Shown: positions 1,655-28,460 of the stretch, piece by piece | Numbering within the stretch: position 1 is the stretch's first letter | Layout: the number at the start of each line of letters is the position of its first letter | Origin: Takakia lepidozioides | Taxonomy: Eukaryota > Plantae > Bryophyta | DNA length: 64,000 nucleotides | Direction of reading: 5' to 3' | Assembly: GCA_030704615.1 (NCBI GenBank) | Contig: CM060733.1 | Span: forward strand, 52,452,001 to 52,516,000 | Program-made: the position numbers and the translations under genes | Notes under the pieces: model-generated | The model's database searches: none | Told to the model about the DNA's origin: nothing | The model's input: only the letters and a program-made list of their open reading frames with translations

Positions 1655-1890
1655 GTCCATATGCCTCTCTCACACATCTTCAATGTTTTAAGGGGCATGA
1701 ATTAAAAATTAAACTTGTGCAGGTTTTCAAAGCTGTCGTGCGCATACATATCGCTACACAACTACATCGTTGTCCCAAACCACACAACACATGTGCACAA
1801 CACATACTAGTATACCACTAGTCCAGCCACTAGTCCAACCACTAGGCTGCCACTATGCTGCCCACTATGGCAGTCACTAGTCCACCACAA

Positions 1891-2114
1891 TGATAAAGAA
1901 GAAGAATACAAGCACAAGCTCATGCGAGCTCATAAACCTGAAACATATATACTCTCATCACTCAAATACAAGTCAAGCCAAATGCACCCCACGCCATGGG
2001 GAATCCACACTACGGCGCCATAGCTAGGCACGGTGAGGCTCAACTCGAGAAAGATGAGCCTCCCGCGCTTGCCGTGAAGATAACCACTCCAGGGCCTAAA
2101 TCTACCTTGACCCC
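1891..2114 (-). mobile_element. Short LTR (3' LTR on minus strand, missing its first ~10 bp) joined to the DNMT-integrase relic
   Basis: Diverged direct repeat of 22557-22791, starting TGATAAAGAAGAAG. Joined to the truncated integrase sequence through a 4-bp GGGG (minus strand) microhomology at 2111-2114. Confidence 0.75.
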
Positions 2115-2500
2115 AATCCCATGATTGGTAAAGGATGCAACTGTGGTGTAGGGTAGTTGAATGAAGCACGCACCCTGTCACACACCATGCATCTAGCCAC
2201 AAACCATTTGCCCCTCTGTGTGCATACCATGCCACCAATACTGCCCCTGCAGTAAACTATGAGTGCGTCTCACTCCAAAATGCCCCAACTCCTCATGGGC
2301 ATGCCGCACTAACCGTGCACGTTCTGTTGGGTGAGGCACAATCCTCACCCAACTATCCTCCCATACTCGGAGCAGGTGTGTCCCCTCCCACTTGAACCTC
2401 TTGGCTCGTTGCAGGATCCGATCCCTCTATTTGGCAGTCACAGTGGCTACCGTGTCTCCAGTACGGAGGTAGTCTAACACAGCCAAATCCTCATGTTTAT
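2111..2500 (-). pseudogene. Ty3/gypsy integrase N-terminal zinc-binding (HHCC) domain, truncated
   Basis: Manual translation: 'HEDLAVLDYLRTG...K*RDRILQRAKRFKWEGTHLLRVWEDSWVRIVPHPTERARLVRHAHEELGHFGVRRTHSLLQGQYWWHGM' (frameshift) 'FVARCMVCDRVRASFNYPTPQLHPLPIMGLG'. Confidence 0.88.
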
Positions 2501-2969
2501 CTCTGGCACCACCTGGCTCATCACTAGCCTCAGGGTTCCCAGACACTCTGTCTACAGTCATCCCTGTTGTAGGTCCAACCTGCCAAGGCTCCAAATTGTC
2601 CTCCGTAACTGCAACTTTAAGTCCAACAGACTTAGAGGTAGGAGACGCGTTCCGTGGTTGCTATACTGCAACCTCTTGAGCAATGCCCATTGCCTGCTTT
2701 GTCAATGACAATGCCTCATCCTGCCCCATCATCTCATCTTTAAGGACCTCCTCAACCCGAGAAGAATCCCTATTATCATCCATCGCCGCCGCCTTGGCTG
2801 CCAACTCCATCTGAACCTCGAGCACCTCCCATGTGTGCCATGGATGTCTGCACCCCGTGGTCATTGCCTGCTCGCCCCCACTCACTGCTTGTACCGTCTC
2901 GGTAGGCAGGGAGTCTGTCAAGGGACATGTAGTGGGAGAAGTTGTCTGCAACCTGCGCTGCTCAGCCAT

Positions 2970-3444
2970 ACTCAGGCTAATGATCTAGGTCAAGCAATTG
3001 AGATCCATTGCTTGCCCCAACACCTGATGACATGATGCCTCAGAAAGAGAATGCACCGCCGTGGTCCCAGTGGAAAAACCCGTAGCCCGCTTGCGCTCAT
3101 CGGTATTAGGCTCCACTAACTGCTGCAACTAAGCATCCCATAGGAGGCCAGGTCCACTATCCCGGAAAGCTTGCGATCTTGGGAAGCTGAGTAGTGTAGG
3201 TAGTGCTGCTCGTGGTTGACCCACCTTGTTGACCACTGCCAAAGGCAAACGGTCATCGTGTCTCACACGCTGAGACTGCCTTCCTATGTCCAAAATGCTA
3301 TCCACCGTGAGGTGTGCTGGTCGCTGCACCCCATCAAATGCATGCTTGAGCAGTGCGGGTGACATCAAGTTAGTCGACCATAGCCGTAGACGATGAGCCC
3401 GTAACCCCACTGCAGCTGCATCCAACAACACTGCTGACCCAAGC
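2970..3444 (-). pseudogene. C5-cytosine DNA methyltransferase (DNMT3-like), C-terminal half (motifs VIII-X)
   Basis: 'LGSAVLLDAAAVGLRAHRLRLWSTNL' (compare DNMT3 DAxxVSAAHRARYFWGNL), 'LVEPNTDERKRATGFSTGTT' (motif IX), 'CHQVLGQAMDLNCLT' (motif X). In-frame TAG stops. Confidence 0.85.
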
Positions 3445-4191
3445 TGTCGCGGCCCTTTGCCTTGAGGGCAGGGGGTCGGGACACATCAGGGGCTGCCCCT
3501 GTGGTGGGGGCAGCGGCAGCGATAGGTATGGGGGGGCTGAGCACCCTTGAGTGCCCAAGCACTCAGGGAAGCGGAGGCGCTCACTAGGTGGAGCCCCGCA
3601 CACCGGGTTGCGGTGGGGGTGGCTCCACAAGCGGTGGGGTTGGCTCCACAAGGGTGGTGGTAGCTTAGTGGGACTTAGTGGGGTGGCATAGGACTCACCA
3701 TGGGGCGGAGACCTCGTGGTGGGAGTCGTGGGGAGTCTTGGGACTCATCACGGTCCATAGGGGCCGTGGTGAGCGGGCCAAGACTCACCGCGACTCACCA
3801 CCGGGAGTCGAGGGTTTTCGTGGTGGTTCGCCATAAAATGGCATGGCTGGTTGTGAACCCCCGCGGACAGCTACAGAAGTATATATAGGGAGTAGTAACC
3901 CCGAGAACGGTGCAAGCCCGTTGGTGACCAAAAACTAGTGAGTAAGCGAGCGAGCCGGAAAGCGACCAAAGAGTGGGGAGCTGTTCCGGACTGCCATCTA
4001 CCAAAGGGAATTCTCCTAGTCCCAAAGAGGTGGAGGGTTTAGAAGGAAGCGAAGGGGGGACCGTTATGTCCCGGTGAGCAGCCGAAGCTCCAAGTTGGCC
4101 CGGGCGGCCAGGTTGGGAGTCAGGCGCGCGCATCAAAGCGAGTAACTATGACTTGAAGGGGAGCTTACCGGAGTGAGTGTGGTGCGCGACA
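3445..4191 (+). repeat. 5' LTR of chromovirus copy 1
   Basis: TG...CA termini, near-identical to 9705-10453; internal 21-bp tandem duplication gcggtgggggtggctccacaa; TATA-like TATATA near 3880. Confidence 0.97.
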
Positions 4192-4192
4192 T

Positions 4193-4204
4193 TGGTATCA
4201 GAGC
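4193..4204 (+). promoter_or_regulatory. Primer-binding site (initiator tRNA-Met)
   Basis: TGGTATCAGAGC immediately after the 5' LTR. Confidence 0.95.
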
Positions 4205-4241
4205 TTAGAGTTCAGTACGCGATCGTCCTTGGGGCCTCATC

Positions 4242-5856
4242 ATGGGGTCGGGCAAGCCGAAGCGAAAGCGGAACGGCCCAAAAGATGATGATCCCGGTGA
4301 GCCCGATGGGGGCGACGTGTCACCGAGGCGGCCGTTTGAGGAAGCGATGAATGTTTCCGAAAACGAGTCCGCTCAGGAGCGGGAGGAATCCGAGGAGTCG
4401 GAGCCCGAGGAATCCTTGAGAGCTCCGACAAACCAAGAGATGCCTCCCATGCCGGCAGCCTTTTGGGAAGGGTTGTTGGCGCAGTTTGGCGGGACGTTGA
4501 AAGACGTGTTGAAGGCGGCTAATGCCACTTCCACTAAGGCAAAGTTTAAGGTGAAGCCTAAGGAACCCGGCACCTTCGAGGGCGTTCGAAACCGGAAGGC
4601 ACTCAACACCTGGCTCCTGGAGCTAGAGCAGTACTTCCGGGCGGCCAAGTTGAGTGACGAGGATCGGGTGGAAGTGGCTCCCACCTATTTGAGGGGCTAT
4701 GCTCAACAATGGTGGCAGAAACGCCTTCACGACCGAGGCCCAAGCCCGGAAACCTTGAACTGGAGTGGGTTCAAGGAATTGATGAAGAGACAGTTTGTGC
4801 CCCTCAACGCGTCCTGGCTTGCCCGGGACAAGATGAGGAATTTGAAGCAAACAGATGACATTCGGGGGTACGTCCAGGCTTTCAATGTGCTGTTGCTCGA
4901 AGTCGCGGACATGGCAGAACCAGAAATGGTCTTCAACTTTGTGGCGGGACTGGCCCCATGGGCCAGGCGGAAGTTGGAGGAGAAGCCACCCAAGACTTTG
5001 AACGAGGCAATTGAGAGGGCTGAATGTTTCTCGGATGTCCCTAGGGGTGAAAGACAAGGCCGTACGGAGCTGAACCACAAGAAGACCCGGCGGGAAGGTG
5101 ACTCCTTCCGACCGGAAAAGAAGTGGGATAGGCCACGCGGCGATAATGGCATGTGGAAATCGAAGGGAGGGCCTTCGTACGTCAAGGCGGCACCCGGTGC
5201 TCCGAAAGGAAAAGCGGGTGGAGCGGCTTATGGCGGACAGAAGGCGACCTTTGATGGAGTGTGTTTCAATTGCGGGGAGCCCGGGCACATGGCCAAGAAG
5301 TGCACGAAGCCCCGGCAATTGAACATGACTCGGGCGACCACGGAGCTGTCGGAAGATACCATCAGTCGCTTGGTGGAAGCGGTAGTCGCCAGGACTTGCA
5401 AGGTAGGCAACTATTCTTGTGAGTTGTATCAGGAAACTGGCGCCTGCGAAAGGGAGTCAGTTATTGTTCGTGGATGGGATAATATCCGGAACTAACGTGT
5501 CGTTGTTGGTGGACACAGGAGCGTCGCACTCCTTCATGACGCCGGTGGCGGCGCGAAAGTTGGGACTCCCGACAAGTGACGTGGGGGCCTCTATTGAGGT
5601 GCGCTCTGCCAAAGGAGAACCTCAGTTGGCGACAAGGTTGGCGTTTGATGTTCCTCTTCAACTGGGGAGTTGGGAGGGACGTGAGAACTTCACTATCTGC
5701 GAGATCGATGGAGTGGATCTCATTTTAGGGATGACCTTTTTGAGCAAATCCGGAGCGGTCATAGATGGCCGCAAGAGAGTAGTCACGCTGCCATGTGGGA
5801 ATGGTGGCGAGGTTTTACGAGTGTCAGAAACGCCCAAATCCGTGGAGGGCGAATAA
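4242..5856 (+). CDS. gag: Gag plus aspartic protease (frameshifts near 5445 and 5845)
   Basis: Retrotransposon gag core ([20 protein letters not shown]), CCHC knuckle [14 protein letters not shown]; protease motif [11 protein letters not shown] in ORF 5419-5856. Confidence 0.93.
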
Positions 5857-8801
5857 ACCTTCTGTCAGCAAAGGAGTGGGCCGTGGAGGAGGCACACGAG
5901 TCCCAGTTTTTGCTTTACATTAGAGAAGTGAAAGGAGAAGGCGATGGGGAGCCGAGCCCAGATTGGATCAAGGGGATTTTGGAGAAATACCAGGATGTGA
6001 TGCCGGAGGATTTACCAAGCGGCTTGCCACCGCGAAGAGGAGTTGACCACAAGATTGAGGTGATACCGGGATCGGGACCGCCTGCCAAGGCGCCCTACCG
6101 GTTGAGCCACAGAGAGTTGGTCGAGCTGAAGACTCAGCTCAAGGATCTAATGTCAAAGGGGTACATCCGGCCGAGTAAGTCACCTTACGGAGCCCCGGTG
6201 CTATTTGCAGACAAGAAGGATGGGACGCTGCGGATGTGTGTCGATTACAGGGCTCTGAATAAGGTGACTATCAAAAACCGGTACCCTTTGCCAAGGATCG
6301 ACGACCTCTTCGATCGGTTGGCAGGAGCGAAGTATTTCAGCCGGATCGACTTGCGCTCCGGCTATCACCAAATTCGGGTGGCAGAAGGAGATGAGGAGAA
6401 GACCGCGTGCAGGACAAGGTATGGTTCATATGAGTTCTTGGTGATGCCTTTTGGGCTCACCAATGCACCAGCGACATTTAGCACGCTGATGAACAGCCTT
6501 TTCCAGGAGTGGTTGGATGACTTTGTGATCGTGTACATCGACGACATCTTGGTGTACTCGAAAACAAAGGAGGAGCACCTGGAGCACCTCAAAAGGGTGT
6601 TCCAAAAATTGCGAGAAGGGAAGCTGTATGCCAAAGCTTCAAAGTGCGAATTCGGGGTCACAAAAGTGGAGTTCTTGGGGCATGTGATTACACAGGATGG
6701 GATCAAAATGGATGACAGAAAGGTGAGGGCGATCTTGGACTGGGAGCCTCCGACTTCGGTCCCGGGAGTGCGATCCTTCCTAGGACTCGCCTCCTATTAC
6801 CGGAAGTATGTGAGAAATTTCGCCAAGATCGCGGGGCCGCTGTCGGACCTTCTGTGTAAATCCAAAGTCTGGGTATGGAACACATTTTGTGGCCAAGCTT
6901 TTGCTGAATTGAAGCAGCGGATGACGGAAGCTCCAGTCTTGAAAATCCCGGAGTTCGATCGTCCGTTTGAGATTCATACAGATGCATCGGACTTCGCAAT
7001 TGGGGGTGTACTTATGCAAGATGGACGTCCAGTGGCTTACGAAAGTAAGAAACTGAATGAAGTGGAGCGACGGTGGCCGACGCACGAAAAAGAGATGAAG
7101 GCGGTGGTGCATTGCCTTGAACTCTGGCGCCACTATGTTGGTTCCAACCCAGTGAAGGTGTTCACGGACAATGTCACGGTGAAGTATTTTGCCACGCAGC
7201 CCAAGTTGTCCCCAAAACAACTTAGGTGGCAAGATACTTTGGCAGTGTTCGACGTGGATATCCAGTACAAACCGGGACGGGACAATGTGGTGGCCGATGC
7301 TTTAAGTAGAAAGCAGCAGCTCTTGTTGGTGTACAAGGGCGAGACGGCGCTCCAAAGGAAGATCCGGAAGGCTTGCCGGAAGGATGAGCTGGCAAAGTGC
7401 GTGATGCAGGACTTGAGAATGGGGGTTAAATCGCAGTTCCACTTGCAAAACGGACTGCTCCGGTATAAGCAAAAACGTCTCTATGTGCCAAAGGGAGGGA
7501 TCAGGGATAGCCTCTTGAGAGAATGCCATGATAGCCCGCTTGCGGGCCACGGTGGAGCCAAGCGCACTGCGGCACTCTTGAAGAAAGAGTATTTCTGGCC
7601 CAAACTGAGGGAGGAGGCAGAGGAGTATGTCAAGACATGCACCACATGCCAACAAAACCGGAGCGAGTACAAAAAGCAAGCGGGGCTGTTACAACCCTTG
7701 CCGATTCCAGAGGGGACTTGGGAAAGCGTCTCGATGGATTTCATGACTGCTATGCCGCTGTCAAAAGGATTCGATGCAATCATGGTGGTGGTAGATAGGT
7801 TCAGTAAAATGGCCCATTTCATCCCCACCAAGGAGACGGCAACGGCGCAGGAGACAGGGCGACTTTACTTCGCCCACGTCTTAAAGCATCATGGAGTCCC
7901 GAAGGATATTGTCTCGGACCGCGATCCAAAGTTTACGAGTAAATTCTGGAGAGCACTTTGGAAGAAGATGGGGACGAGGCTGAAGATGAGCACCGCCTTC
8001 CGACCTACGACGGACGGCCAAACGGAAAGAGTGAATTCCGTAGTGAAGCAATTCTTGCGGAATTACGTGTCGGCAGACCAATCAGACTGGATGGAACACT
8101 TAGACGCGGCAGAGTTCTGTTATAATAACACAGAACACTCCGCGACGGGAGTTTCCCCTTTTGTGTTGGTCTATGGAAAAGCACCTCTGGTGCCGACAAG
8201 TTGGGCCGCCCAGGACGTTGAGGAACCGGCAGTAGCGGCGGTACTGGAAGAACGCGAGCGTTTGTTGAAGCTCGCAAAGTACAACATTGCCAAAGCTAGG
8301 AAACGGTATGAAAGGCAGGCGAATCGGAAGCGGAGGGAAGTGAAGTTTGAGGCAGGCACAGAGGTCTGGTTGAACATCAAGAATTTTCGACTACCTCCGG
8401 AAGTGAGTCCGAAGTTCGTACCTCCGTATGCGGGTCCCTTTCGCATTCGGAGGGTTATGAATGAGGATGTGTATGAATTGGAGCTGCCGGCAAACAGCAA
8501 GGTGCACCCAGTATTCCATGTCTCCCTTTTGAAGCCTTACTTCAAAGATGAAGCACGTCCGAATCGGCAGCAAGTGTTGCGTCCGCCACCTATGCTGTTG
8601 GATCATGAAAATGAACCTGAGTACGAGGTGGAGGCAATACTTAAGTCGAGGAGGTTCAAGAACCGAGAAACGGAGTATCTCGTCAAATGGAAGGGCTATC
8701 ATCTTGTGGAGGCATCTTGGGTGCGTGCCTCAGAAATGGGAAACGCATCCGAGGCACTTGCAGCGTTCGAAGGGCGACCTCAAAAGCGGAAGAAACGTTG
8801 A
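5793..8801 (+). CDS. pol: Pol: reverse transcriptase, RNase H, integrase, chromodomain
   Basis: 1002-aa open frame: [25 protein letters not shown]; [10 protein letters not shown]; HDSPLAGH...CTTC; SMDF/SDRD/GQTE; YAGPF; chromodomain EYEVEAIL...YLVKWKGY...SWV; basic tail RPQKRKKR. Confidence 0.98.
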
Positions 8802-9704
8802 TGGGGACATCAACCTTGGAGCGTGGGGGAGGAAATGCATGCTTAGCCCGGTTTAGCTAGCTCAGGAATCCGATTGCAAAAACTTGTATTGTACAAAAAT
8901 TTGTTATAAAGGAAATGGGTTCCAAATATTGTGCGTCCTATTGTGTTTGGAATGGTGATGCATGGTGTGGTTGGCTAGTGTGTAGAATGCATGCTAGCTT
9001 ACAAAAGTGGGAGAGGTAAATTGGGTAATCGTGTGTTTGCGCAGTGCCGAAATCGGGTGACTCCCATCCAGGGGCAAGGAAACTTGCGCCTTCTTTGGGA
9101 GTTCACGTGCTAGTGCGCACCTGGCGCGTGCGCGTACTATAACTGCGCTACCGAGGGGGTTGCCTTGTAGTGCGGGCTAACGCGGAAGCTACGTGCTTCC
9201 GTTCACGTACTATAATCGTGTAGCCTCGGGACGAAGTCGTAGTGCGGCTTCGGCGTGTTCCCGTACCTCAGGCCAGCATTCCAAGGCGGACCCAATTGTA
9301 GTGATTGGGGCGCACGGTTGGTTCAAGGTTATCTTCCTAGTCAAAGAGGGTTCCAGGTGAACCCTTGCTCAAGGTGATGCCAAAAGCGGCATCATGAGCG
9401 ATCGCAAGCAATGTTGTTGCAGTAAGGCGATTCGATCCTCGGGGAGGATCGTTCCTTGGCCTTGAAGTAGGCCAAGAAGAGTGCACTGGAGGAGCTGGAG
9501 AGGCTCCACCCTTGGCCGGGACTTGGAGGAAGTCGGCCGAACTAGCTAGTGGAGAGTAGAGTCAAGTGTGGGGTTTGGTTCTTTGCCATGGGACGCCATG
9601 GTACAGAAACAAACTCCTTGATGTGGGACGCCACAACTTGGATGTTCGTTTCTACAAAATGGACAAGTCGATGAGGACATCGACTCCCTGTTGGTAGGGG
9701 TGTG

Positions 9705-10453
9705 TGTCGCGGCCCTTTGCCTTGAGGGCAGGGGGTCGGGACACATCAGGGGCTGCCCCTGTGGTGGGGGGCAGCGGCAGCGATAGGTATGGGGGGCTGA
9801 AGCACCCTTGAGTGCCCAAAGCACTCAGGGAAGCGGAGGCGCTCACTAGGTGGAGCCCCGCACACCGGGTTGCGGTGGGGGTGGCTCCACAAGCGGTGGG
9901 GTTGGCTCCACAAGGGTGGTGGTAGCTTAGTGGGACTTAGTGGGGGTGGCATAGGACTCACCATGGGGGCGGAGACCTCGTGGTGGGAGTCGTGGGGAGT
10001 CTTGGGACTCATCACGGTCCATAGGGGCCGTGGTGAGCGGGCCAAGACTCACCGCGACTCACCACCGGGAGTCGAGGGTTTTCGTGGTGGTTCGCCATAA
10101 AATGGCATGGCTGGTTTGTGGAACCCCCGCGGACAGCTACAGAAGTATATATAGGGAGTAGTAACCCGAGAACGGTGCAAGCCCGTTGGTGACCAAAAAC
10201 TAGTGAGTAAGCGAGCGAGCCGGAAAGCGACCAAAGAGTGGGGAGCTGTTCCGGACTGCCATCTACCAAAGGGAATTCTCCTAGTCCCAAAGAGGTGGAG
10301 GGTTTAGAAGGAAGCGAAGGGGGGACCGTTATGTCCCGGTGAGCAGCCGAAGCTCCAAGTTGGCCCGGGCGGCCAGGTTGGGAGTCAGGCGCGCGCATCA
10401 AAGCGAGTAACTATGACTTGAAGGGGGAGCTTACCGGAGTGAGGTGCGCGACA
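9705..10453 (+). repeat. 3' LTR of chromovirus copy 1
   Basis: Preceded by purine-rich GGTAGGGGTGTG (9693-9704); ends GCGCGACA followed by TSD CAAGC. Confidence 0.97.
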
Positions 10454-10727
10454 CAAGCCATGACCGGACTTGATGCACACTGGCCATCACCCTGGCCCGA
10501 GAATCGCCCATCAGTGGCACATTCTCCAAGACGTATGCTGAAGGTACAGCTTGATGAAGCTGCAAGTGGCGCAAAACCCGCACCATCTCCCAAAACAGAC
10601 CCGACCTCGAGTCTCACAATCCATTGTCATACCTGGCTTATAAATGCCCTTGGCAGGGCCAACCTGCCACTACCAGATCAATGGAGCCAACCCGCTCCAA
10701 ATCCTGCGCCGCCCCCAACAAGAAAAT
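10454..10727 (-). pseudogene. C5-cytosine DNA methyltransferase (DNMT3-like), catalytic N-terminal half (motifs IV and VI)
   Basis: Manual translation: 'DLERVGSIDLVVAGWPCQGHL*ARYDNGL*DSRSGLFWEMVRVLRHLQLHQAVPSAYVLENVPLMGDSRARVMASVHQVRSWL'. PC motif within 10647-10664, ENV at 10518-10526. Motif I is absent (truncated). Confidence 0.9.
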
Positions 10728-10749
10728 GTATGGTGGCAAGGCCTGCTGA

Positions 10750-12709
10750 TAATTGTGGGAGCATTGAGGATGCGGAGGGAGTGTTCAACACTATGGCTGA
10801 ACAAGGTGGTGTCGTGGAACACGATTCATCCAAGAGGTCGATTTTAAACACAAGATTACTTCTGATTCCCTGCGGATCAATAGCTACAAGAAAGCTGCGT
10901 GGGTAGATGGTCAACTGGAAACAGCAGCGGCAGCAGTGCATTTGATAGAACAAGGCGCTGCTAATGAAGGTACCTTCTTCAACACATTTCAGCCCGTTTT
11001 TCCCTGTTATCAGAGTTTTTCCCTATTTTTTCCTGAATGAGCATGGATAGAGTGTGGGTCCAGATTCATCCAAGAGGGTTGGACTTCAAGCTCCAGATTA
11101 CCTTGATTCCATGTGGGGGTCAGTAGCTATAAGAAACCTGCATGGGTGCGTTAAGGATGTTCTCCCAAATGATACCAGACTGGTCTGATATCTAATACCA
11201 GTGCATATACCAGTATTATGTACCAGTCCTTCACCTATATACCAGTCCAACACTATTCCAGACCTTCCATCTTAATGCACTTAAGCAAAAGACAGACATA
11301 CATATCTGAATCTGGTGAAATGCCTTGTGATGTGGTTAGGCTTCACCCCTTCTCCCATCATTTGCTCATAGGTCTCCAAAGCCTCCATCCCGTGCCCCTG
11401 TTGTGCATACCCTGCAAGCATCACGTTCCACGACACCACATCTCGTTCAGCCAGAGTGTTGAAAACTCGTCTTCCTCATTTACGCTGGTATGTATACTGA
11501 ATTAATTTATGTGTACATATGCCTATATATTCGTACTTATGTATATTTACTTCTTATGTATATTTTATTTGTTTTCACTTGATACTTGCCACTTGACAAA
11601 TTTGTAACTCAAGATGGCTTTGGAATGATACCAGAGTTGATATCTCATACCAGCTGGTATTGTGGTCATGATACTCATATTCATACTAGTATCTGGAAAA
11701 AAATACATCCACCATTATAGAAACCAGACTGGTATGAAAGTTTTGTGATACGCCTGGTACCAGGACCAGTCTGGTATGTAAAAAACTTGATACCAGTCCA
11801 ACACTGGTGTGGAAGTTGGAAAACAGGTGCATACTCACATCATCCAAAGTGGATTCACGTCAAATGTTTTTCTTCTCAACACCCTTGTCAACATGTATGT
11901 TATGTGCGGGAGCATCATTGATGCTCACCAAGTGTTCAACAGAATGCCTCAACGATCTTTGATCACGTGGAATATAATGTTAGCAGGATGCAATGCGTGT
12001 GCAAGCCTGGGAGCTCTGGAAAAGGGGAAAGAGGTCCATGGTGACATTGTCAAAGCTGGAATTGTACCAGATCTCATTCTGAACACTCTTTTGGTGGACA
12101 TGTATGCCAAATGTGGGTGCATTAAGGATGCGAAGAGAGTTTCCATGGCTGAACGAGATGTGGTGTCGTGGAGTGCGATGCTTGCAGGGTATGCACAGCA
12201 GGGATGTGGTCTGTCAGCTTTGGAAAAGGGCAAAGAGGTCCATGGCGACATTGTTAGATCTGCAATTGTATCAAATGTCATTTTGAACAGTACCCTCGTG
12301 GACATGTATGAAGGGAGTGTTCGACGGTATGGCTGAACGAGATGTGCTGTTGTGGAGTGCTATGATTGCAGGATATGCACAACAAGGGCGTGGGATGGAG
12401 GCTTTGGAGACCTATGAGCAAATGATGTGCGAAGGGGTGAAGCCGCACTTTGCATTGCATGATGTTGAGGAAGAGCTTAAAGAATCGTCTCTTTGCCACC
12501 ACAGTGAGAAGCTGGCCATTGTTTTTGGGCTTACCAACACACCCTCTGGGATGTCTTTAGGGATCATCAAGAATCTTCGGATGTGTGGTGATTGACACAC
12601 AGCCACCAAATTCATCTCAAAGATAGCTAAGCAAGAGATTGTTGTACGGGATGCAAACCGCTGTCACCACTTCCAAAATGGTGTTTGTTCTTGTGGGGAG
12701 TATTGGTGA
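10750..12709 (+). pseudogene. PLS-class PPR-DYW RNA-editing factor pseudogene
   Basis: PPR motifs (NTLVNMYVMCGSIIDAHQVFNRMPQRSLITWN; MYAKCGCIKDA; ERDVVSWSAMLAGYAQQG). DYW part [12 protein letters not shown]...KNLRMCGD*H...[20 protein letters not shown] (stop at 12707-12709). Frameshifts, a stop in CxxC, loss of E/E+/PG box, a MITE insertion and an inversion. Confidence 0.92.
11160..11806. mobile_element. hAT MITE subfamily B, split by an inversion (pieces 11160-11255 and 11474-11806)
   Basis: 11474-11806 is the reverse complement of about 28461-28794; 11160-11255 matches about 28873-28968 directly. TSD recoverable as GTCTGGAA (reverse complement of 11256-11263) / GTGTGGAA (11807-11814). Confidence 0.85.
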
Positions 12710-13404
12710 AATGAAATGCTTGTCATCTAATTGAATGTATTGAACTCTGTCAACTGCGAGTCAGGTTGGACTCCAACAGTGGCAGCAAAGGCGCACGAAA
12801 TCTCTTTTTGGAGAGGAATTCTTAACAGTAGGTTTTGAACATAATTGGACCTTGCGAAGGTTGAAACTGTAGAACAAGTTCAGAAACTGTCCTAGTTGAT
12901 GAACAGAGGTGCAGTGACTAGGTCTTGGTCTTCAAGAGGGTCACTCTCTGATGAAATACCCAGGACTGCATATCAGAAAATAGAAACTTTCTTTAGGCCT
13001 CTTGCACATAGGGCATTGACAATGTCCCTTTCCTCTCGGCATCTGATTATGGTTCAAAGTGAGATTCCACAACAAGTTTTATCGAGGGCAAACAAATTTT
13101 TTAATGAATTTATTAGATTTTATTCTATTTTTAAATGAATAAACTTGATATAATATTAAAACATACATATACATATTTGAGGGTATTTTTTAATTATTGA
13201 AAAGGGAAATATACATACAGAAGGGGGTATTTTTTAAAAATTACAAATTTCTATATATTTACAGGAGAGGGTTTTATAATCTTCAAAATGTATGTACAGA
13301 GGGGGTATAAATGATCCAAGGACCCGTATACATGGGGTTTTTTTATTAGGCGGCGAACGCACGTGATACGGACATTTTATAAAGAGTGCACCCCCCAGGA
13401 TCCA

Positions 13405-16400
13405 GGGGGGGGCTGAAGCACCCTTGAGTGCCCAAGGCACTCAAGGAGGCGGAGGCGCTCACTAGGTGGAGCCCCGCACACCGGGTTGCGGTGGGGGTGG
13501 CTCCACAAGGGGTGGTGGTAGCTTAGCGGGACTTAGTGGGGGTGGCATAGGACTAACCATGGGGGCGGAGACCTCGTGGTGGGAGTCGTGGGGAGTCGTG
13601 GGGAGTCTTGGGACTCATCACGGTCCATAGGGGCCGTGGTGAGTGGGCCAAGACTCACCGCGACTCATCACCGGGAGTCGAGGGTTTTCGTGGTGGTTCG
13701 CCATAAAATGGCATGGCTGGTTGTGAAACCCCCGCGGACAGCTACAGAAGTATATATAGGGAGTAGTAACCCCGAGAACGGTGCAAGCCCATTGGTGACC
13801 AAAAACTAGTGAGTAAGCGAGCGAGCCGGAAAGCGACCAAAGAGTGGGGAGCTGTTCCAGACTGCCAACTACCAAAGGGAATTCCCGCTGGATCCAAATC
13901 GGTGGAGGGTTCTTTGGGAGTTCAAAGGGGGACCGTTATGCCCCGGTGAGCAGCCAAAGCTCCAAGTTGGTCCGGCGGCCAGGTTGGGAGTTAGGCCGCA
14001 TCAAGCTAGCAACTATGACCTGAAGGGGAGTTTATCGAAGTGAGGTGCGCGACACTTGGTATCAGAGCTTAGAGTTCAGTACGTGATCGTCCTTGGGATT
14101 GGCCTCATCATGGGGTCGGGCAAGCCAAAGCCAAAGCGGAACGGCCCAAAAGATGATGATCCTGGTGAGCCCTATGGGGGCGACATGTCACCGAGGCGGC
14201 CGTTTGAGGAAGCGATGCATGTCTCCGAAAACGAGGCCGCTCAAGAGCGGGAGGAATCTGAGGAGTCGGAGCCCGAGGAATCCCTGAGAGCTCCGACCGA
14301 CCAACAGATGCCTCCCATGCCGGCAGCCTTTTGGGAAGGGTTGTTGGCGCAATTTGGCGGGACGTTGAAAGACGTGTTGAAGGCGGCTAATGCCACTTCC
14401 ACTAAGGAAAAATTTAAGGTGAAGCCTAAGGAACCCGGCACCTTCGAGGGTGTCCGAAATCGGAAGGCACTCAACACCTGGCTCCTGGAGCTAGAGCAGT
14501 ACTTCCGGGCGGCCAAGTTGAGTGACGAGGACCGGGTGGAAGTGGCTCCCACCTATTTGAGGGGCTATGCTCAACAATGGTGGCAGAAACGCCTTCACGA
14601 CCGAGGTCCAAGCCCGGAAACCTTGAATTGGAGTGGGTTCAAGGAATTGATGAAAAGGCAGTTTGTGCCCCTCAACGCGTCCTGGCTTGCCCGGGACAAG
14701 ATGAGGAATTTGAAGCAAACAGATGACATTCGGGGATATGTCCAGGCTTTCAATGTGCTGTTGCTCGAAGTCGCGGACATGGCAGAACCAGAAATGGTCT
14801 TCAACTTTGTGGCGGGACTGGCCCCATGGGCTAGGCAGAAGTTGGAGGAGAAGCCACCTAAGACTTTGAACAAGGCAATTGAGAGGGCTGAATGTTTCTC
14901 GGATGTCCCTAGGGGTGAAAGACAAGGCCGTACGGAGCTGAACCACAAGAAGACCCGGCGGGAAGGTGACGCCTTCCGACCGGAAAAGAAGTGGGATAGG
15001 CCACGCGGCGACAATGGCACGTGGAAATCGAAGGGAGGGCCTTCACAAATCAAGGCGGCACCCGATGCTTCAAAAGGAAAAGCGGATGGAGCGGCCTATG
15101 GCGGACAGAGGGCGACCTTTGATGGAGTGTGTTTCAATTGCGGGGAGCCCGGGCACATGGCCAAGAAGTGCACGAAGCCCTGGCAATTGAACATGACTCG
15201 GGCGACCACAGAGCTGTCGGAAGATACCATCAGTCGCTTGGTGGAAGCAATGGTCGCCAGGACTTGCAAGGTAGGCAAATTTTCTTGTGAACTGTATCAG
15301 GAAACTGGCGCCTTACGTAAAGGGAGTCAGTTATTGTTCGTGGATGGGATAATATCCGGAACTAACGTGTCATTGTTGGTGGACACAGGAGCGTCGCACT
15401 CCTTCATGACACCGGCAATGGCACAAAAGCTGGGACTCCCGACAAGTGACGTGGGGGCCTCTATTGAGGTGCGTTCTGCCAAAGGAGAACCGCAATTGGC
15501 GACGAGGTTGGCGTTCGATGTCCCTCTTCAACTGGGGAAATGGGAAGGACGTGAGAACTTCACCATTTGCGAGATCGATGGAGTGGATCTCATTTTGGGG
15601 ATGACCTTTTTGAGCAAATCCGGAGCGGTCATAGATGGCCGCAAAGAGTAGTCACGCTACCATGTGGGGATGGTGGCGAAGTCTTACGAGTATTGGAAAC
15701 GCCCAAACCCGTGGGAGGGCGAATAAACCTTCTGTCAGCAAGGGAGTGGGCCGTGGAGGAGGCACATGAGCCCCAGTTTTTGCTTTACATTAGAGAAGTG
15801 AAGGGAGAAGGCGATGGGGAGCCGAGCCCAGATTGGATCAAGGGGATTTTGGAGAAATACCAGGATGTGATGCCGGAGGATTTACCAAGCGGCTTGCCAC
15901 CGCGAAGAGGAGTTGACCACAAGATTGAGGTGATACCGGGATCGGAACCGCCTGCCAAGGCACCCTACCAGTTGAGCCACAGAGAGTTGGTCGAGCTGAA
16001 GACTCAGCTCAAAGATCTAATGTCAAAGGGGTACATCCGGCCGAGTAAGTCACCTTACGGAGCCCCGGTGCTATTCGCAGACAAGAAGGATGGGACGCTG
16101 CGGATGTGTGTCGATTACAGGGCTTTGAATAAGGTGACTATCAAAAACCGGTATCCTTTGCCAAGGATCGACGACCTTTTCGATCGGTTGGCAGGAGCGA
16201 AGTATTTCAGCCGGATCGATCTGCGCTCCGGCTATCATCAAATTCGAGTGGCGGAAGGAGATGAGGAGAAGACCGCGTGCAGGACAAGGTATGGTTCATA
16301 TGAGTTCTTGGTGATGCCTTTTGGGCTCACCAATGCACCCGCGACCTTTAGCACGCTGATGAACAGCCTTTTCCAGGAGTGGTTGGATGACTTTGTGATC

Positions 16401-19400
16401 GTGTACATCGACGACATCTTGGTGTATTCGAAAACAAAGGAGGAGCACCTAGAGCACCTCAAAAGGGTGTTCCAGAAATTGTGGGAAGGGAAGCTGTATG
16501 CCAAAGCTTCAAAGTGCGAATTCGGGGTCACAAAAGTGGAGTTCCTGGGGCATGTGATTACACAGATGGGATCAAAATGGATGACAGAAAGGTGAGGGCG
16601 ATCTTGGACTGGGAGCCTCCGACTTTGGTCCCGGGAGTGCGATCCTTCCTAGGACTCGCCTCCTATTACCGGAAGTATGTGAGAAATTTCGCCAAGATTG
16701 CGGGGCCGTTGTCAGACCTTCTGCGTAAATCCAAAGTCTGGGTATGGAACACCTTGTGTGGCCAAGCTTTTGCTGAATTGAAGCAGCGGATGGCGGAAGC
16801 TCCAGTCTTGAAAATCCCGGAGTTCGATCGCCGTTCGAGATTCATACAGATGCGTCGGACTTTGCGATTGGGGGTGTACTGATGCAAGATGGACGTCCAG
16901 TGGCTTACGAAAGTAAGAAACTGAACGAAGTGGAGCGACGGTGGCCGACGCACGAGAAAGAGATGAAGGCGGTGGTGCACTGTCTTGAGCTTTGGCGCCA
17001 CTATGTTGGTTCCAACCCAGTGAAGGTGTTCACGGACAATGTTACGGTGAAGTATTTTGCCACGCAGCCCAAGTTGTCCCCAAAACAACTTAGGTGGCAA
17101 GATACTTTGGCGGTGTTTGACGTGGATATCCATACAAACCGGGACGTGACAATGTGGTGGCCGATGCTTTAAGTAGAAAGCAGCAGCTCCTGTTGGTGTA
17201 CAGGGGCGAGACGGCGCTCCAAAGGAAGATCCGGAAGGCTTGCCAGAAGGATGAGCTGGCGAAGTCCGTGATGCAGGACTTGAGGAGGGGGGTTAAATCG
17301 CAATTCCACTTGCAAAATGGACTGCTCCGGTATAAGCAAAAGCGTCTCTATGTGCCGAAGGGAGGGATCAGAGATAGTCTCTTGAGAGAATGCCATGATA
17401 GCCCGCTTGCGGGCCACGGCGGAGCCAAGCGAACTGCGGCACTCTTGAAGAAAGAGTATTTCTGGCCCAAACTGAGGGAGGAGGCAGAGGAGTATGTCAA
17501 GACATGCACCACATGCCAACAAAACCGGAGCGAGTACAAGAAGCAAGCGGGGCTGTTACAACCCTTGCCGATTCCAGAGGGGACTTGAGAAAACGTCTCG
17601 ATGGATTTCATGACTGCTATGCCGCTGTCAAAAGGATTCGATGCAATCATGGTGGTGGTGGATAGGTTCAGTAAAATGGGCCATTTCATCCCCACCAAGG
17701 AGACGGCAACGGCGCAAGAGACATGGCGACTTTACTTCGCCCACGTCTTAAAACATCATGGAGTCCCGAAGGATATTGTCTCGGACCGCGATCCAAAGTT
17801 TACGAGTAAATTTTGGAGGACACTTTGGAAGAAGATGGGGACGAGGCTGAAGATGAGCACCGCCTTCCGACCTACGACCGACGGCCAAACGGAAAGAGTG
17901 AATTCCGTAGTGAAACAGATCTTGCGGAATTACGTGTCGGCAGACCAATCAGACTGGGTGGAACACTTAGACGCGGTAGAGTTCTGTTATAATAACACAG
18001 AACACTCCGCAACGGGAGTTTCCCCTTTCGTATTGGTCTATGGAAAAGCAACTCTGGTGCCGACAAGTTTGACCGCCCATGACGTTGAGGAACCGGCAGT
18101 AGCGGCGGTACTGGAAGAACGCGAGCGTTTGTTGAAGCTCGCAAAATACAACATTGCCAAAGCAAGGAAACGGTATGAAAGGCAGGTGAATTGGAAGCGG
18201 AGGGAAGTGAAGTTTGAGGCAGGCACGGAGGTTTGGTTGAACATCAAGAATTTCCGACTACCTCCGGAAGTGAGTCCAAAATTCGTACCTCCGTATGCGG
18301 GACCCTTTGGCATCCGGACGGTTATGAATGAGGATGTGTATGAATTGGAGCTGCCGGCAAACAGCAAGGTGCATCCAGTATTTCACGTCTCCCTTTTGAA
18401 GCCTTACTTCAAAGATGAAGCGCGTCCGAATCGGCATCAAGTGTTGCGTCCGCCACCTGTGCTGTTGGATCATGAAAATGAACCTGAGTACGAGGTGGAG
18501 GCAGTACTTAAGTCAAGGAGGTCCAAGAACCGAGAAATGGAGTATCTCGTCAAATGGAAGGGCTATCATCATGTGGAGGCATCTTGGGTGCGTGCCTCAG
18601 AAATGGGAAACGCATCCGAGGCGGTTGCAGTTTTCGAAGGGCGACCTCAAAAGCGGAAGAAGCGTTGATGGGGACATCAACCTTGGAGCGTGGGGGAGGA
18701 AATGCATGCTTAGCCCGGCTTAGCTAGCTCAGGAATCCGATTGCAAAAACTTGTATTGTACAAAAATTTGTTATAAAGGAAATGGGTTCCAAATGTTGTG
18801 TGTCCTATTTTGTTTGGAATGGTGATGCATGGTGTGGTTGGCTAGTGTGTAGAATGCATGCTAGCTTACAAAAGTGGGAGAGGTAAATTGGGTTAATCGT
18901 GTGTTTGCGCAGTGCCGAAATCGGGTGACTCCCATCCAAGGGGCAAGGAAACATGCGCCTTCTTTGGGAGTTCACGTGCTAGTGCGCACCTGGCGCGTGC
19001 GCGTACTATAACTGCGCTACCGAGGTGGTTGCCTTGTAGTGCGGGCTAACGCGGAAGCTATGTGCTTCCGTTCACGTACTATAATCGTGTAGCCTCGGGA
19101 CGAAGTCGTAGTGCGGCTTCGACGTGTTCCCGTACCTCAGGCCAGCATTCCAAGACAGATCCAATTGTAGTGATTGGGGCGCACAGTTGGTTCAAGGTTA
19201 TCTTCCTAGTCAAAGGGGGTTCGAGGTGAATCCTTGCGCAAAGTGATGCCAAAAGCGGCATCAGGAGCGATCGCAAGCAGTTGTTGCAGTAGGGTGATTC
19301 GATCCTCGGGGAGGATCATTCCTTGACCTTGAAGAAGGCCAAGAAGAGTGCACTGGGAGGAGCTTGAGAGGCTCCACCCCTGGCCGGGACTTGGAGGAAG

Positions 19401-20297
19401 TCGGCCGAACTAGCTAGTGGAGAGTAGAGTCAAGTGTGGGGTTTGGTTCTTTGCCATGGGACGCCAAGGTACGGAAACAAACTCCTTGATGTGGGACGCC
19501 ACAACTTGGATGCTCGTTTCTACAAAATGGACAAGTCGATGAGGACATCGACTCCCTGTTGGTAGGGGTGTGTGTCGCGGCCCTTTGCCTTGAGGGCAGG
19601 GGGTCGGGATACATGAGGGGCTGCCCCTGTGGTAGGGGCAGCGGCAGCGATAGGTATGGGGGGCTGAAGCACCCTTGAGTGCCCAAGGCACTCAAGGAGG
19701 CGGAGGCGCTCACTAGGTGGAGCCCCGCACACCGGATTGCGGTGGGGGTGACTCCACAAGGGGTGGTGGTAGCTTAGCGGGACTTAGTGGGGGTGGCATA
19801 GGACTCACCATGGGGCGGAGACCTCGTGGTGGGAGTCGTGGGGAGTCTTGGGACTCATCACGGTCCATAGGGGCCGTGGTGAGTGGGCCAAGACTCACAG
19901 CGACTCATCACCGGGAGTCGAGGGTTTTCGTGGTGGTTCACCATAAAATGGCATGGCTGGTTGTGAAACCCCCGTGGACAGCTACAGAAGTATATATAGG
20001 GAGTAGTAACCCCGAGAACGGTGCAAGCCCGTTGGTGACCAAAAACTAGTGAGTAAGCGAGCGAGCCGGAAAGCGACCAAAGAGTGGGGAGCTGTTCCGG
20101 ACTGCCAACTACCAAAGGGAATTCCCGTTGGTTCCAAATCGGTGGAGGGTTCTTTGGGAGTTCAAAGGGGGACCGTTATGCCCCGGTGAGCAGCCGAAGC
20201 TCCAAGTTGGTCCGGCGGCCAGGTTGGGAGTTAGGCGTGCGCATCAAGCTAGCAACTATGACCTGAAGGGGAGCTTACCGAAGTGAGGTGCGCGACA
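13405..20297 (+). mobile_element. Ty3/gypsy chromovirus copy 2 (decayed, 5' LTR truncated)
   Basis: 5' LTR remnant 13405-14054, PBS TGGTATCAGAGC 14057-14068, 3' LTR 19573-20297; highly similar to copy 1. No TSD recoverable because the first ~85 bp of the 5' LTR are missing. Confidence 0.96.
14110..18668 (+). pseudogene. gag-pol of chromovirus copy 2, disrupted
   Basis: Gag-PR in one frame (to 15651); frameshifts near 15645, 16565, 16830 and 17133; TGG>TGA stop at 17586-17588; chromodomain ends at 18668. Confidence 0.95.
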
Positions 20298-20935
20298 CAC
20301 AGGCCACAGGTCACAGCCTGTCACTGCCCCAAAGGCCATAGGGCACAGCCTGTCACTGCTAGTCACAGCCCATCACAACCCCACAGGCCACAGGCCACAG
20401 CCCGTCACAGCCCCACAGGCCACATGTCACAGTCTGTCACAACCCTACACATGTGACAGGGTCACAGCATCACAAGCCACAGCCTGTCACAGCCCCAAAG
20501 GCCACAGGGCACAGCCTGTCACAGCACGTCACAGCCCCACAGGCCACAGGTCACAGCCTGTCACAGCCCGTCATGGCCCCAAAGGCCACATGTCACAGCC
20601 TGTCACAGTCCATCACAGCCCATCACAGCCCGTCACAGCCCCAAAGGCCACAGGGCACAGCCTGTCACAGCCCTACACAGGTCACAGGGTCACAACCCCA
20701 CAGGCCACAACCTGTCATAGCCCCATAGGCCACAGGTCACAGCCTGTCACAGCCCCAAAGGCCACTTGGCACAGCCCATCACAACCCATCACAGCCTGTC
20801 ACAGTCCGTCACAGCCCATCACAGCCCCACAGGCCACAGGCCACTGCCCGTCACAGCCCCACAGGCCACTGCCGTCACAGCCTATCATAGCCCCCAAAAG
20901 CCACACAGCCCGTCACAGCCACATCCATGGCCGCT
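20298..20935. repeat. Complex minisatellite built from ~10-11-bp units (TGTCACAGCC / CACAGGCCACAGG)
   Basis: Directly visible tandem array; produces the repetitive ORFs 20453-20970. Confidence 0.92.
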
Positions 20936-21429
20936 CATGGCAGTTTAGCCATTTCTCCAAAGGGGTTTAGCCACCACACCAAGCTAGGGTTAATATCTCC
21001 TTGAACTCTAAGCTTTTTTGCACCGAGCTATGGCGGCTGTGAGGAAATCAGCAAGGTATTCTTGCTCTTTTCGGCTCCCACACACCACCAATAATAGCTC
21101 TAAGTCATGAGGAAGATGTTTGCCACAATCCAAACCCTCTTTCTCACTTAGACTCCCAAAATCCGCCACTCAACTCAATGGCAAACAACCGAGCCTTGCT
21201 GGTTTCCAGCCCTTGTGAGCACTTATTCATGCGCTCTCCTTGGCCATAGAATGTGTCTTAGAGCCTATTCCAGCCCCCTGCACCTGCCACTTCAAGAACC
21301 ATGCTCTATCTAGGCTTGTAGTTGAAACCCCAACTCAGAACACGCTCTACAAGTGTCGGACTGTCACATAAGAGCAGATCAGCCCCTTACCTTCTCTTCT
21401 AGCTCTCCAAAGCTTAAAGATGGAGGCCT

Positions 21430-21862
21430 AACTAGGCTGAATGCATGCTCCACACATGCACTACTGCCACATAAGATAAATCAGCTCCTTTGTTGCCTTT
21501 CTTGCACCCACAAACCTGAAAATACAAGCTTTAGCGGGCTGAAAGCATGCTCCACACATGCCCTACAGGGAAACCAGCTCCTTCATTCATTTTTTGCACT
21601 CCCAAACCTGAAAATACAAGCCTTCAACGGGCTGAAAGCATGCTCCACACATGCGTTGCCTTCACATAAGAGAAGTCAGCCCTTCCCTCTTCCTTCCTTG
21701 CCCTCCAAGCTTGAAGATAGAAGCTTCATGGGCTAAATGCATGCTCCACACATGCATCCTTTCACACAAGAGGTAATATCAGCCCCCTATCTTGGCTGAA
21801 TGCATGCTCCACACATGCATCCGCTTCACACAAGAGGTAATATCGGCCCCCTATCTTGGCTC
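21430..21862. repeat. Degenerate tandem repeats with core GCATGCTCCACACATG
   Basis: Core seen five times (about 21443, 21545, 21637, 21738, 21802), with near-perfect duplication of the last two units; separate 21-bp duplication ACAAGACACTCTTCTTGTGGT at about 21950-21992. Confidence 0.85.
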
Positions 21863-22556
21863 TTTGGCTCCTTGATGCTCTCTAAGACAAGACTAAGCAT
21901 TCCACAGCCTTTGCCAAGCTCCTGAAATCCTAAGGTTTACATTTCCAGCCACAAGACACTCTTCTTGTGGTACAAGACACTCTTCTTGTGGTACAAGAGC
22001 TCTTATTCCAAGCTCTGAAACCCTAGGTGCACATTCCATGGCGTTGCCGTACCTCTTAGCTCCTGTTCCAGCCTTGCTCTTGCCATGGCAAGAGCCCTTT
22101 CAATGCTGAAGCTCGAGATTGAAACCCAATCTCAACATACTCCACAAAGTGCACTGATTTGCCCCAAGCCAAATTAGCCCTTTAGCTTGGTCTTGCAATC
22201 CTTCACACAATGAAAGCTCGCATTCCCAAAGCCAGTTCTCAGCTTTGCCACCAAAGCCACTATAACTTGCTTTTGAATGATCATCTTCACAATCGTGCTT
22301 GCTCATGCATGTACACAATTTGAAACCATCAAGGTGCTCTGGAATTACCTGCATCATGGTGCTTTCATCTCTGAAGCTGAAGATCGAATGCCAAGGTCTA
22401 CCACCTTGTACCCACATCGCCTCCGCTCCGAATAACCACGAATTTGATGATGCTCCTCGCATCCAAACCTGATTTCTCTCATTCTCAAGCAAAAACCACA
22501 AGTGCTACAACTAACTCGTATATGGCACTAACAGATACGAGCCGATCTTTCTCGAG

Positions 22557-22801
22557 TGATAAAGAAGAAGAATACAAGCACAAGCTCATGCGAGCTCACA
22601 AAGCTGAAGCATAAATTCATGCATATATAAACTCATCACTCAAATACAAATCAAGTCAAATGCACCCCACGCCATGGGGAATCCACAGTACGGCGCCATA
22701 GCTAGGTGCGGTGAGGCTCAACTCGAGAAAGATGATCCTCCCGCGCTTGCCGTGAAGATAATCACTCCAGGACCTAATCTGCCTTAACCCCTAGATTGAC
22801 A
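22557..22801 (-). mobile_element. Complete ~245-bp LTR (5' LTR on minus strand) with putative self-priming PBS
   Basis: Minus strand TGTCAATC...CTTTATCA. The junction sequence ACTCGAGAAAGAT (22557-22545) is exactly complementary to LTR-internal ATCTTTCTCGAGT (22733-22721). Homologous to 1891-2114. Confidence 0.78.
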
Positions 22802-22966
22802 CTTGGGCCAATCCCAAATATCAATATGTAAAAGCTAGCTATTTCTTAGCTAGTTTCACACTAGTGGTGAAATAACTTGACAAAGCTTTTGTAGCGCAGC
22901 TGAGCAACCCTTTAAGATCAACTATATATAGTTGGGCTACAAGCAGCAAACTCATCCACCAGAGGG

Positions 22967-27700: not shown

Positions 27701-27835
27701 GTCTGGGCCTGGCAATGGAGCGGCATGCACAGTATGCATCTTCCTACTACACCACGCTATGGATACTAGCATAATCGCCCACAACAATTTCGATGTGCCC
27801 AATCCACATCCCGGATGCAGTCCTTCCCTACCCAT
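24776..27835 (-). CDS. PPO: Polyphenol oxidase (type-3 copper tyrosinase family); 4 coding exons: 27835-27441, 26562-26084, 25809-25598, 25468-24776
   Basis: CuA LHCAYC + VHSNWLLMPFHRWY; CuB HPHAAVH + DPLFYAHHANVDRLW; DWL and KFDV-like C-terminal domains (EELLAIEGI...FLNLP...EYAGAF). Splice phases are consistent and the N-terminus is hydrophobic. Confidence 0.95.
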
Positions 27836-28460
27836 AGTTGTTGTCCACGAACCCAGAGACCAACGAAGATATCAGCTGGACCTGTGAGAGAGAGACTAAA
27901 TGACATGAATGGGAAGCCTTGAACTGATATTTCGGGTTCTCCTTGAAGGTGCAGAGTTTTGGAGATGCCCAGCTGTGCCGTGCAAACAGCTCAGGAAACG
28001 GCGGCGGCCTGCTCCGACTGTAGACAGCTGTACCAGAGAGTTTCCAAACCCCGACCTATCATCACCACAGGAGTTTCCAGAGCAGTTCACTGAATTAGCA
28101 GCTGGAGCCTGGTGCTACTTTTGTTGCTCTCTGACAAGCGTCGTTATGGCTGCACCTGGATTGTACATGCACTTGATGTTCAACGGTTTGGCGAATAAAT
28201 ATAAGTTTCTGCCTTTCACGTTAGTCTTTAACGATCTGTCTAAACCAAGCTACTGGCCCGTTGTTTCACATGGCGTATCCGGAATCCCAAAACAGCCATA
28301 CAGATATTAATATTTAGTTACTAGGGTTAATATGATAAATTATGATAAATTAATATTTATACCAATATTAGATGCAAGAAACCGTAGGACAAGATTCCTC
28401 AAACTCCAATTGTAGAGAATATTCTCCAGCTTGATGTAGGATCCTCTATTCGGTAAAATC

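Follow-up and report, generated by a model that had tools for sequence, protein, structure and literature searches.

The sequence analyzed here, referred to as the window, is a stretch of 64,000 nt from Takakia lepidozioides (contig CM060733.1, positions 52,452,001 to 52,516,000; all coordinates below are window positions). It contains what is probably a dead copy of a Ty3/gypsy retrotransposon family in which open reading frame 1 (ORF1) encodes Gag, protease and a DNMT3-type cytosine methyltransferase, followed by a likely read-through stop and a Pol frame encoding reverse transcriptase (RT), RNase H (RH), integrase (INT) and a PHD finger, with the enzyme presumably carried in the particle and possibly methylating newly made DNA. 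The copy in the window is internally deleted and makes no enzyme. The original prediction, made from this sequence, had described a Ty3/gypsy relic with its own DNMT3-type enzyme, a methyltransferase joined to an integrase; the identity of the element holds and a Klebsormidium-type kinship is supported by anatomy, while the native adjacency of enzyme and integrase does not hold.

Domain organization and relatives

The family plan was derived from bryophyte relatives and 80 metagenome loci, nearly all of one moss-like family, and reads ORF1 Gag-protease-DNMT3, in-frame stop, Pol RT-RH-INT-PHD. The downstream frame of the relic yielded 12 longer proteins among 7992 candidates scored, of which the best six are from Marchantia polymorpha (60-65% identical) and the next from Sphagnum fallax (49%). 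Querying with the Marchantia domain returned 61 near-length and 520 shorter proteins (120 of the 520 listed), and named sources among the matches listed were M. polymorpha, M. paleacea, Riccia sorocarpa, Calypogeia fissa and Sphagnum species. In Coleochaete scutata a transcript codes for a matching RT-RH-INT-PHD protein, in which no methyltransferase was seen. The scan of viral_contigs gave no relative among 76 pattern matches.

Seventy-six proteins carry the methyltransferase together with another marker. The enzyme stands after the protease or before RT in 50 of them, including every land-plant-named protein but one (P0141, with a scrambled order), and between RNase H and integrase (RT-RH-DNMT-INT-PHD) in 25 metagenome proteins; the remaining one is the scrambled protein. 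Quick trees were built of the enzyme (58 rows) and of RT-RH, neither with a host-DNMT3 outgroup. In the enzyme tree the window relic has its own branch within a group of 18 rows (support 99) that also contains Marchantia, Calypogeia and Sphagnum sequences. In both trees the RT-RH-DNMT-INT-PHD proteins (P0010-P0012, P0014 and P0044-P0061) group apart with support of 99, at about 30-42% identity. This second domain order implies that the methyltransferase domain either moved or was captured a second time.

The ends of the family are organized as split repeats. Among the 18 long loci tested, five have the arrangement A-coding-B-A-B (L030, L048, L075, L077 and L079, of which L077 and L079 are one insertion). 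Elements start with TG and end with CA. The flanking 4-bp target duplications agree perfectly in L075, L077, L039 and L028 and with a single mismatch in L030; both ends were not visible in the remaining loci examined for duplications. The window copy keeps the terminal A-B at 2111-1734. Loci L039 and L028 have target duplications around A-coding-B alone, a form that suggests recombination between split repeats. The internal B|A junction (L007:13874-13893, L075:10342-10361, L081:7067-7084) consists of CA, two bases and TG and is near-palindromic in distant families; it has the look of two element ends fused together, and both termini could be copied from it. In the 5 loci whose 5' end was located, the A repeat there is not followed by a TGG-type tRNA primer site. 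An apparently uninterrupted element of the lineage, L081 (CADCWO010000201.1), lies in a cyanobacterial metagenome bin, where it is likely a eukaryotic contaminant; its contig is terminally redundant, as expected of collapsed split repeats.

The ORF1 stop and expression of Pol

ORF1 of the window copy ends at a TAG (2661-2663, minus strand) followed by CAACCA, a CARYYA context predicted to be leaky. CAR-YYA is the consensus described as directing readthrough in tobacco mosaic virus (TMV; PMC2194720). In relatives ORF1 ends about 90-165 residues after motif X, and the window TAG lies 119 residues after it. The ORF1/Pol junction is spanned by 60 of the 80 loci, corresponding to 53 distinct stretches with TAG in 36, TAA in 15 and TAC in 2; CAACCC follows the junction codon in 49 of the 53, and Pol continues in the same frame as ORF1. 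The exact combination of TAG and CARYYA occurs at the same place in the window and in two distant families, represented by L046 and by L081, whose methyltransferase is 49% identical to that of Marchantia; of all 1434 TAGs in the window, 7 are followed by CARYYA. L081 has one stop-free frame of at least 1162 codons and a Pol frame of 1047 codons, the first methionine of its Pol being residue 117, inside RT; L046 Pol has no methionine before residue 48, and none is present in the 25 Pol codons left in the window. From these junctions, Pol is probably made by stop readthrough.

ORF1 translation would yield Gag-protease-DNMT3 in bulk, with readthrough supplying Pol at a low ratio. The methyltransferase, made at Gag level, would be packed into the particle where cDNA forms; such packaging alongside Gag is expected from the ORF1 position and from general retroelement biology. 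The packaged enzyme may then methylate the cDNA of the element at CG, as Symbiodinium DIRS enzymes can in yeast.

Structure of the relic

The features of the element and its insert in the window are as follows.

1734-1890, minus strand: repeat B, which forms the element's 3' end and finishes in CA; the end matches the B ends of L007, L030, L048, L075 and L077
1891-2111, minus strand: 3' part of the terminal copy of repeat A; 209 matches, 14 mismatches and 13 gap columns against 22557-22791
2112-2582, minus strand: end of the RH-INT linker, integrase zinc finger (HHCC) and first core residues, with one stop and one frameshift (Pfam, tblastn)
2582-2586, minus strand: deletion point, RT and RNase H missing (sister contigs)
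2586-2660, minus strand: first 25 Pol codons, without methionine, up to the deletion point (frame reading)
2655-2663, minus strand: ORF1 stop with its CARYYA context
2664-2963, minus strand: ORF1 tail behind the methyltransferase, aligning with the tails of P0139, P0019 and P0003
2964-3443, minus strand: C-terminal half of the methyltransferase, motifs VIII, IX and X, two stops (frame comparison with relatives)
3445-10453, plus strand: young chromovirus inside the methyltransferase, with TG...CA ends and a 5-bp target duplication (3440-3444 and 10454-10458)
about 3445-4191 and 9704-10453, plus strand: long terminal repeats (LTRs) of the chromovirus (LTR-LTR alignment)
10455-10763, minus strand: middle piece of the DNMT3-type methyltransferase, motifs IV (PCQ) and VI (ENV), two stops (PF00145)
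22557-22882, minus strand: 5'-type repeat A of the same family, starting with TG (repeat comparison)

As originally proposed, a chromovirus splits a C5-methyltransferase frame; the same 5 bases flank it on both sides, and the two minus-strand pieces fall in one frame when one target copy is discounted. All the motifs that had been read from the letters are present, IV and VI in the upstream piece and VIII, IX and X in the downstream piece. The upstream piece, scored with X at its 2 stops, matches PF00145 at 43.5 bits (cut-off 22 bits; E 3.7e-11) and is 63-69% identical to type-A relatives by tblastn. The downstream piece alone gave no PF00145 match; it is 60-65% identical to Marchantia proteins that do match, and a PDB sequence search with the downstream frame returned nothing useful. 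A natural sister protein, P0139, is stop-free and 81% identical to the C-terminal half. The element had been placed at 2111-10727, and it is there, with upstream homology running further to about 10763 and the 3' end lying at 1734. Loose contig ends occur at 10710 and 10754, and homology stops at about 10754-10763 against PPR-derived sequence; the part of the enzyme before motif IV, including motif I, is lost from this copy.

Continuing downstream, the same frame reaches Integrase_H2C2 (E 1.1e-9) through 4 TAG stops, with the expected frameshift in the integrase zinc-binding region located near 2208-2218. The stops had been taken as nonsense stops; of the four in-frame TAGs one, the ORF1 stop, appears native. 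Comparison with sister contigs shows that the supposed linker between enzyme and integrase conceals a deletion at 2582-2586, where about 1.5 kb carrying RT and RNase H is missing and the reading frame is kept. A 2173-nt sister contig covers 2400-2582 and 2586-3047 with 1533 letters between them, against 3 in the window; these 1533 letters correspond in length to RT and RNase H together. In run X1, loose ends leave the two sides of the deletion point in 46 and 16 contigs. One of two presumed-RNA runs contains a bridging contig; it may be DNA and is not taken as a sign of transcription. The methyltransferase is seen running into integrase because the RT-RNase H loss keeps the frame. The integrase core and the PHD finger are lost to a further deletion, located after 2112, and loose ends of sister contigs there continue into the core.

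The terminal repeat B matches that of L030 with E 1.9e-7. The 4 bases outside the 22882 end are identical to the 4 bases outside 1734 (chance about 0.004), so positions 1734 and 22882 may well be the two ends of one element, now 21 kb long, a reading that we moderately favor. Weighing against it, no Gag or protease remains were found between 10763 and 22557 by tblastn with 12 relatives. The ORF at 22103-22504 had no Pfam match. Tandem-repeat arrays with units of 10, 21, 64 and 93 bases lie at 20305-20925 and 21378-21998.

The chromovirus insert encodes Gag, protease, RT, RNase H, integrase and, after the integrase, a chromodomain (Chromo, E 3.3e-11), and it has LTRs, a tRNA primer site and the 5-bp target duplication characteristic of its class. 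Its LTR pair aligns with 741 matches, 0 mismatches and 14 gap columns. The empty-site joint from 3439 to 10454 was recovered in sister contigs of 4 of 4 runs (6, 4, 3 and 2 contigs; 2 samples); an uninterrupted form of the methyltransferase therefore exists in sister copies. Reads compared with 3445-10453 show many single-base homopolymer indels, including one near 5843 at a protease/RT frame change, and some of these may be assembly errors. A second copy of the same chromovirus family at 13400-20298 is about 96% identical inside, with its first LTR clipped; it is the older of the two because its LTRs differ by 13 mismatches.

The stop at 2985-2987 is private to the window copy, with about 95% of depth differing there in 2 DNA runs (contig depth is not copy number). 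Decay contexts in the copy are CG 5, CHG 7 and CHH 9 (21 places, from 40 differences listed) and do not indicate CG-only decay. Fragments of PPR and DYW-like genes in both orientations lie at 10754-12600, interspersed with a small repeat found again at about 1100, 24200, 28450-28970 and 56150-56740. The window also holds a polyphenol-oxidase-like gene (24776-27871, minus strand) and a BAHD acyltransferase gene (60660-62011, minus strand). Together with the PPR sequences, these two genes point to a land-plant host.

Enzyme type, selection and CpG content

Ranking with the family profile placed DNMT3A/B/C first (best E 1.7e-11), Dnmt2 and a DRM-type entry next (both about 1e-5) and HhaI last (2e-3). 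The best fold match of a model of P0068 (70 rows, pLDDT 90.2) was DNMT3A (E 3.5e-18, TM 0.81 on target). The methyltransferase of the relatives is intronless with motifs I-X in unrearranged order, and the stop-free frames of L003, L007 and L046 contain the catalytic motifs I, IV, VI, VIII and X, as does Marchantia P0003.

Between families the enzyme has dN of 0.23-0.30 and dS from 1.5 to saturated, giving dN/dS (nonsynonymous over synonymous divergence) of about 0.1-0.2, which points to long-term purifying selection. Within the moss-like family, counting codon states found in at least 3 distinct copies and leaving out L046, dN/dS was 0.58 for the enzyme, 0.61 for protease, 0.36 for Gag, 0.30 for RT, 0.28 for RH and 0.37 for INT.

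Observed/expected CpG across codon boundaries was 0.35 in the relic, 0.05 in L046 Pol (stop-free) and 0.52 in L002 Pol; the chromovirus gave 0.73-0.78 and two host exons gave 0.75-1.0. The deficit is specific to CG in L046 (CpG 0.27 vs CHG 1.22) and in the relic (CpG 0.47 vs CHG 1.08). The pattern fits CG self-methylation in some lineages and does not demonstrate it.

Alternative explanations

Several observations weigh against readthrough and against a methylating role for the enzyme. The moss-like CAACCC is one base off the consensus, and Pol could start at an ATG in that family, because one stands at codon 3 in 51 of the 53 stretches. Among the 40 of 97 differences listed no change falls at 2661-2663, so retention of the TAG in host sister copies was not directly seen. 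The Candida element Tca2 is described as having an in-frame stop without detectable readthrough and a junction that acted as a promoter (PMC2194720). These points bear on an explanation that keeps the same element and anatomy and has Pol made from a separate start, through an internal AUG or a spliced or sub-genomic RNA. Besides the codon-3 ATG and the Tca2 precedent, it draws support from TAA replacing TAG in 15 of 53 stretches and from 8 junctions in which no conserved RNA structure was found downstream of the stop. Such a start is nevertheless unlikely given the missing early methionines of L046, L081 and the window copy and the conservation of exact CARYYA between families with nearly saturated synonymous sites, and TAA would be the expected decay product of TAG. 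The enzyme itself might be kept for another job, namely binding DNA or RNA in the particle or acting at the insertion site or on host chromatin, or it might ride as a weakly selected passenger, a possibility of real weight though short of an even chance. In its favor, constraint on the enzyme within the moss-like family is weaker than on RT (0.58 vs 0.30), CpG in L081 (0.77 and 0.61) shows no deficit beyond the chromovirus level, and methylation was not seen in yeast with the K. nitens enzyme, a result its authors call inconclusive (PMC5890265). The presence of the catalytic motifs and the strong CG-specific deficit in L046 and the relic speak against it. CpG loss is also not general, L007 ORF1 (0.83) lying close to the chromovirus, and host methylation would deplete CpG too. 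CG methylation of the element's own cDNA as the job of the methyltransferase comes close to an even call, on the doubtful side.

Two further explanations concern the window copy alone. That its methyltransferase natively stood directly before integrase would agree with the order in 25 of the 76 proteins and with a frame passing from enzyme to integrase without a frameshift; it is very improbable, as those proteins form a separate, distant clade, and it is largely refuted by the 1533 extra letters of the sister contig and the loose ends on both sides of the deletion. The chance that a host DNMT3 or DRM pseudogene merely adjoins retroelement debris is negligible. Host-gene debris is present in the PPR fragments directly upstream, whereas the enzyme has no introns, its motif order is not DRM-rearranged, its nearest relatives are retrotransposon polyproteins, family-type terminal repeats stand at the 3' end and divergent sister contigs are many. 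Linkage of other copies to Pol and to terminal repeats refutes the chance-neighbor explanation, which the original prediction had named as the finding that would overturn it. A broader version of the favored reading, a dead Ty3/gypsy copy from a family with a probable capsid-level DNMT3, is offered tentatively and is unlikely to hold in every part: an old streptophyte Ty3 lineage, abundant in liverworts, mosses and Takakia, would carry DNMT3 at capsid level before a TMV-type leaky stop, methylate its cDNA at CG in the particle, rebuild both ends from the B|A junction without a tRNA primer site and integrate through a DDE enzyme.

Relation to known elements and significance

The closest described element is KnitGypsy-Dnmt3 of the alga Klebsormidium nitens (de Mendoza et al. 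2018, PMC5890265). Shared with it, as that paper describes, are the Ty3/gypsy domains with a DDE integrase (PR, RT, RH, INT), an intronless, non-rearranged DNMT3-type domain, and DIRS-like split repeats in the order A-coding-B-A-B (legends of Fig. 1 and 4). The K. nitens enzyme is described as lying alongside RT and RNase H in the Pol ORF (PMC5890265), whereas here it closes ORF1 before the CARYYA stop; a single ORF joining enzyme, RT and RNase H is interrupted by a stop in 51 of the 53 junctions and in L046, L081 and the window. The TG...CA ends, 4-bp target duplications and PHD finger of the present family are unmentioned for KnitGypsy-Dnmt3 in the consulted portions of PMC5890265, and the hosts here are land plants. 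The enzyme of that element is described as under purifying selection, with Ka/Ks below 0.2; the values here are about 0.1-0.2 between families and, inside the moss-like one, 0.58. Among the matches listed (120 of 520 in one search) none carries a K. nitens label, so the proposed kinship is based on anatomy.

SymbioDIRS-Dnmt3 of Symbiodinium likewise has a DNMT3-type domain in a retroelement polyprotein with split repeats and is described as an independent capture by a tyrosine-recombinase element (PMC5890265), in contrast to the DDE integrase and target duplications here; its enzyme methylates CG de novo in yeast (PMC5890265). The EpiLTRs of Cymbomonas and Euglena are also LTR elements with a cytosine methyltransferase, and theirs is described as sister to DNMT4, accompanied by DAM and a chromodomain and called distinct from streptophyte Gypsy-DNMT3 (bioRxiv 10.64898/2026.05.21.726589). 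Two ORFs in one frame with a stop between them are likewise described for TMV, SIRE1, MuLV and Tca2 (PMC2194720), TMV sharing CARYYA; here the stop follows the methyltransferase, between Gag-protease-DNMT and RT, and its readthrough is predicted.

De Mendoza et al. placed the capture in the K. nitens lineage (PMC5890265). The main text of that paper is without Marchantia, Physcomitrella, Selaginella and Sphagnum, and in its supplementary text Physcomitrella and Selaginella occur only in a gene-count table. The term streptophytes is used by PMC12344493 and bioRxiv 10.64898/2026.05.21.726589, citing or echoing PMC5890265. The accessible text of PMC11244446, PMC10952607, PMC6317226, PMC9477723, PMC9985172 and bioRxiv 10.1101/2021.02.12.428880 describes no such element, and no report for land plants was found in a library of open-access papers, with subscription papers and Repbase outside the search.

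Surveys of plant genes may take retrotransposon DNMT3 domains for DNMT3 genes of the host, and split repeats would hide such elements from ordinary LTR finders. The question why transposons carry the silencing enzyme of their hosts has so far been posed only in dinoflagellates and one alga. An enzyme placed ahead of a leaky stop predicts many copies per particle, narrowing its possible roles. Several ORF1 proteins of the lineage (1278-1281 aa: Mp_4g09160, Mp_5g06330, Mp_5g06860, Mp_Vg00370 and Mp_Vg00540) are annotated in Marchantia polymorpha. Methylomes and mutants exist for this genetic model, and activity, packaging and readthrough are therefore testable there.

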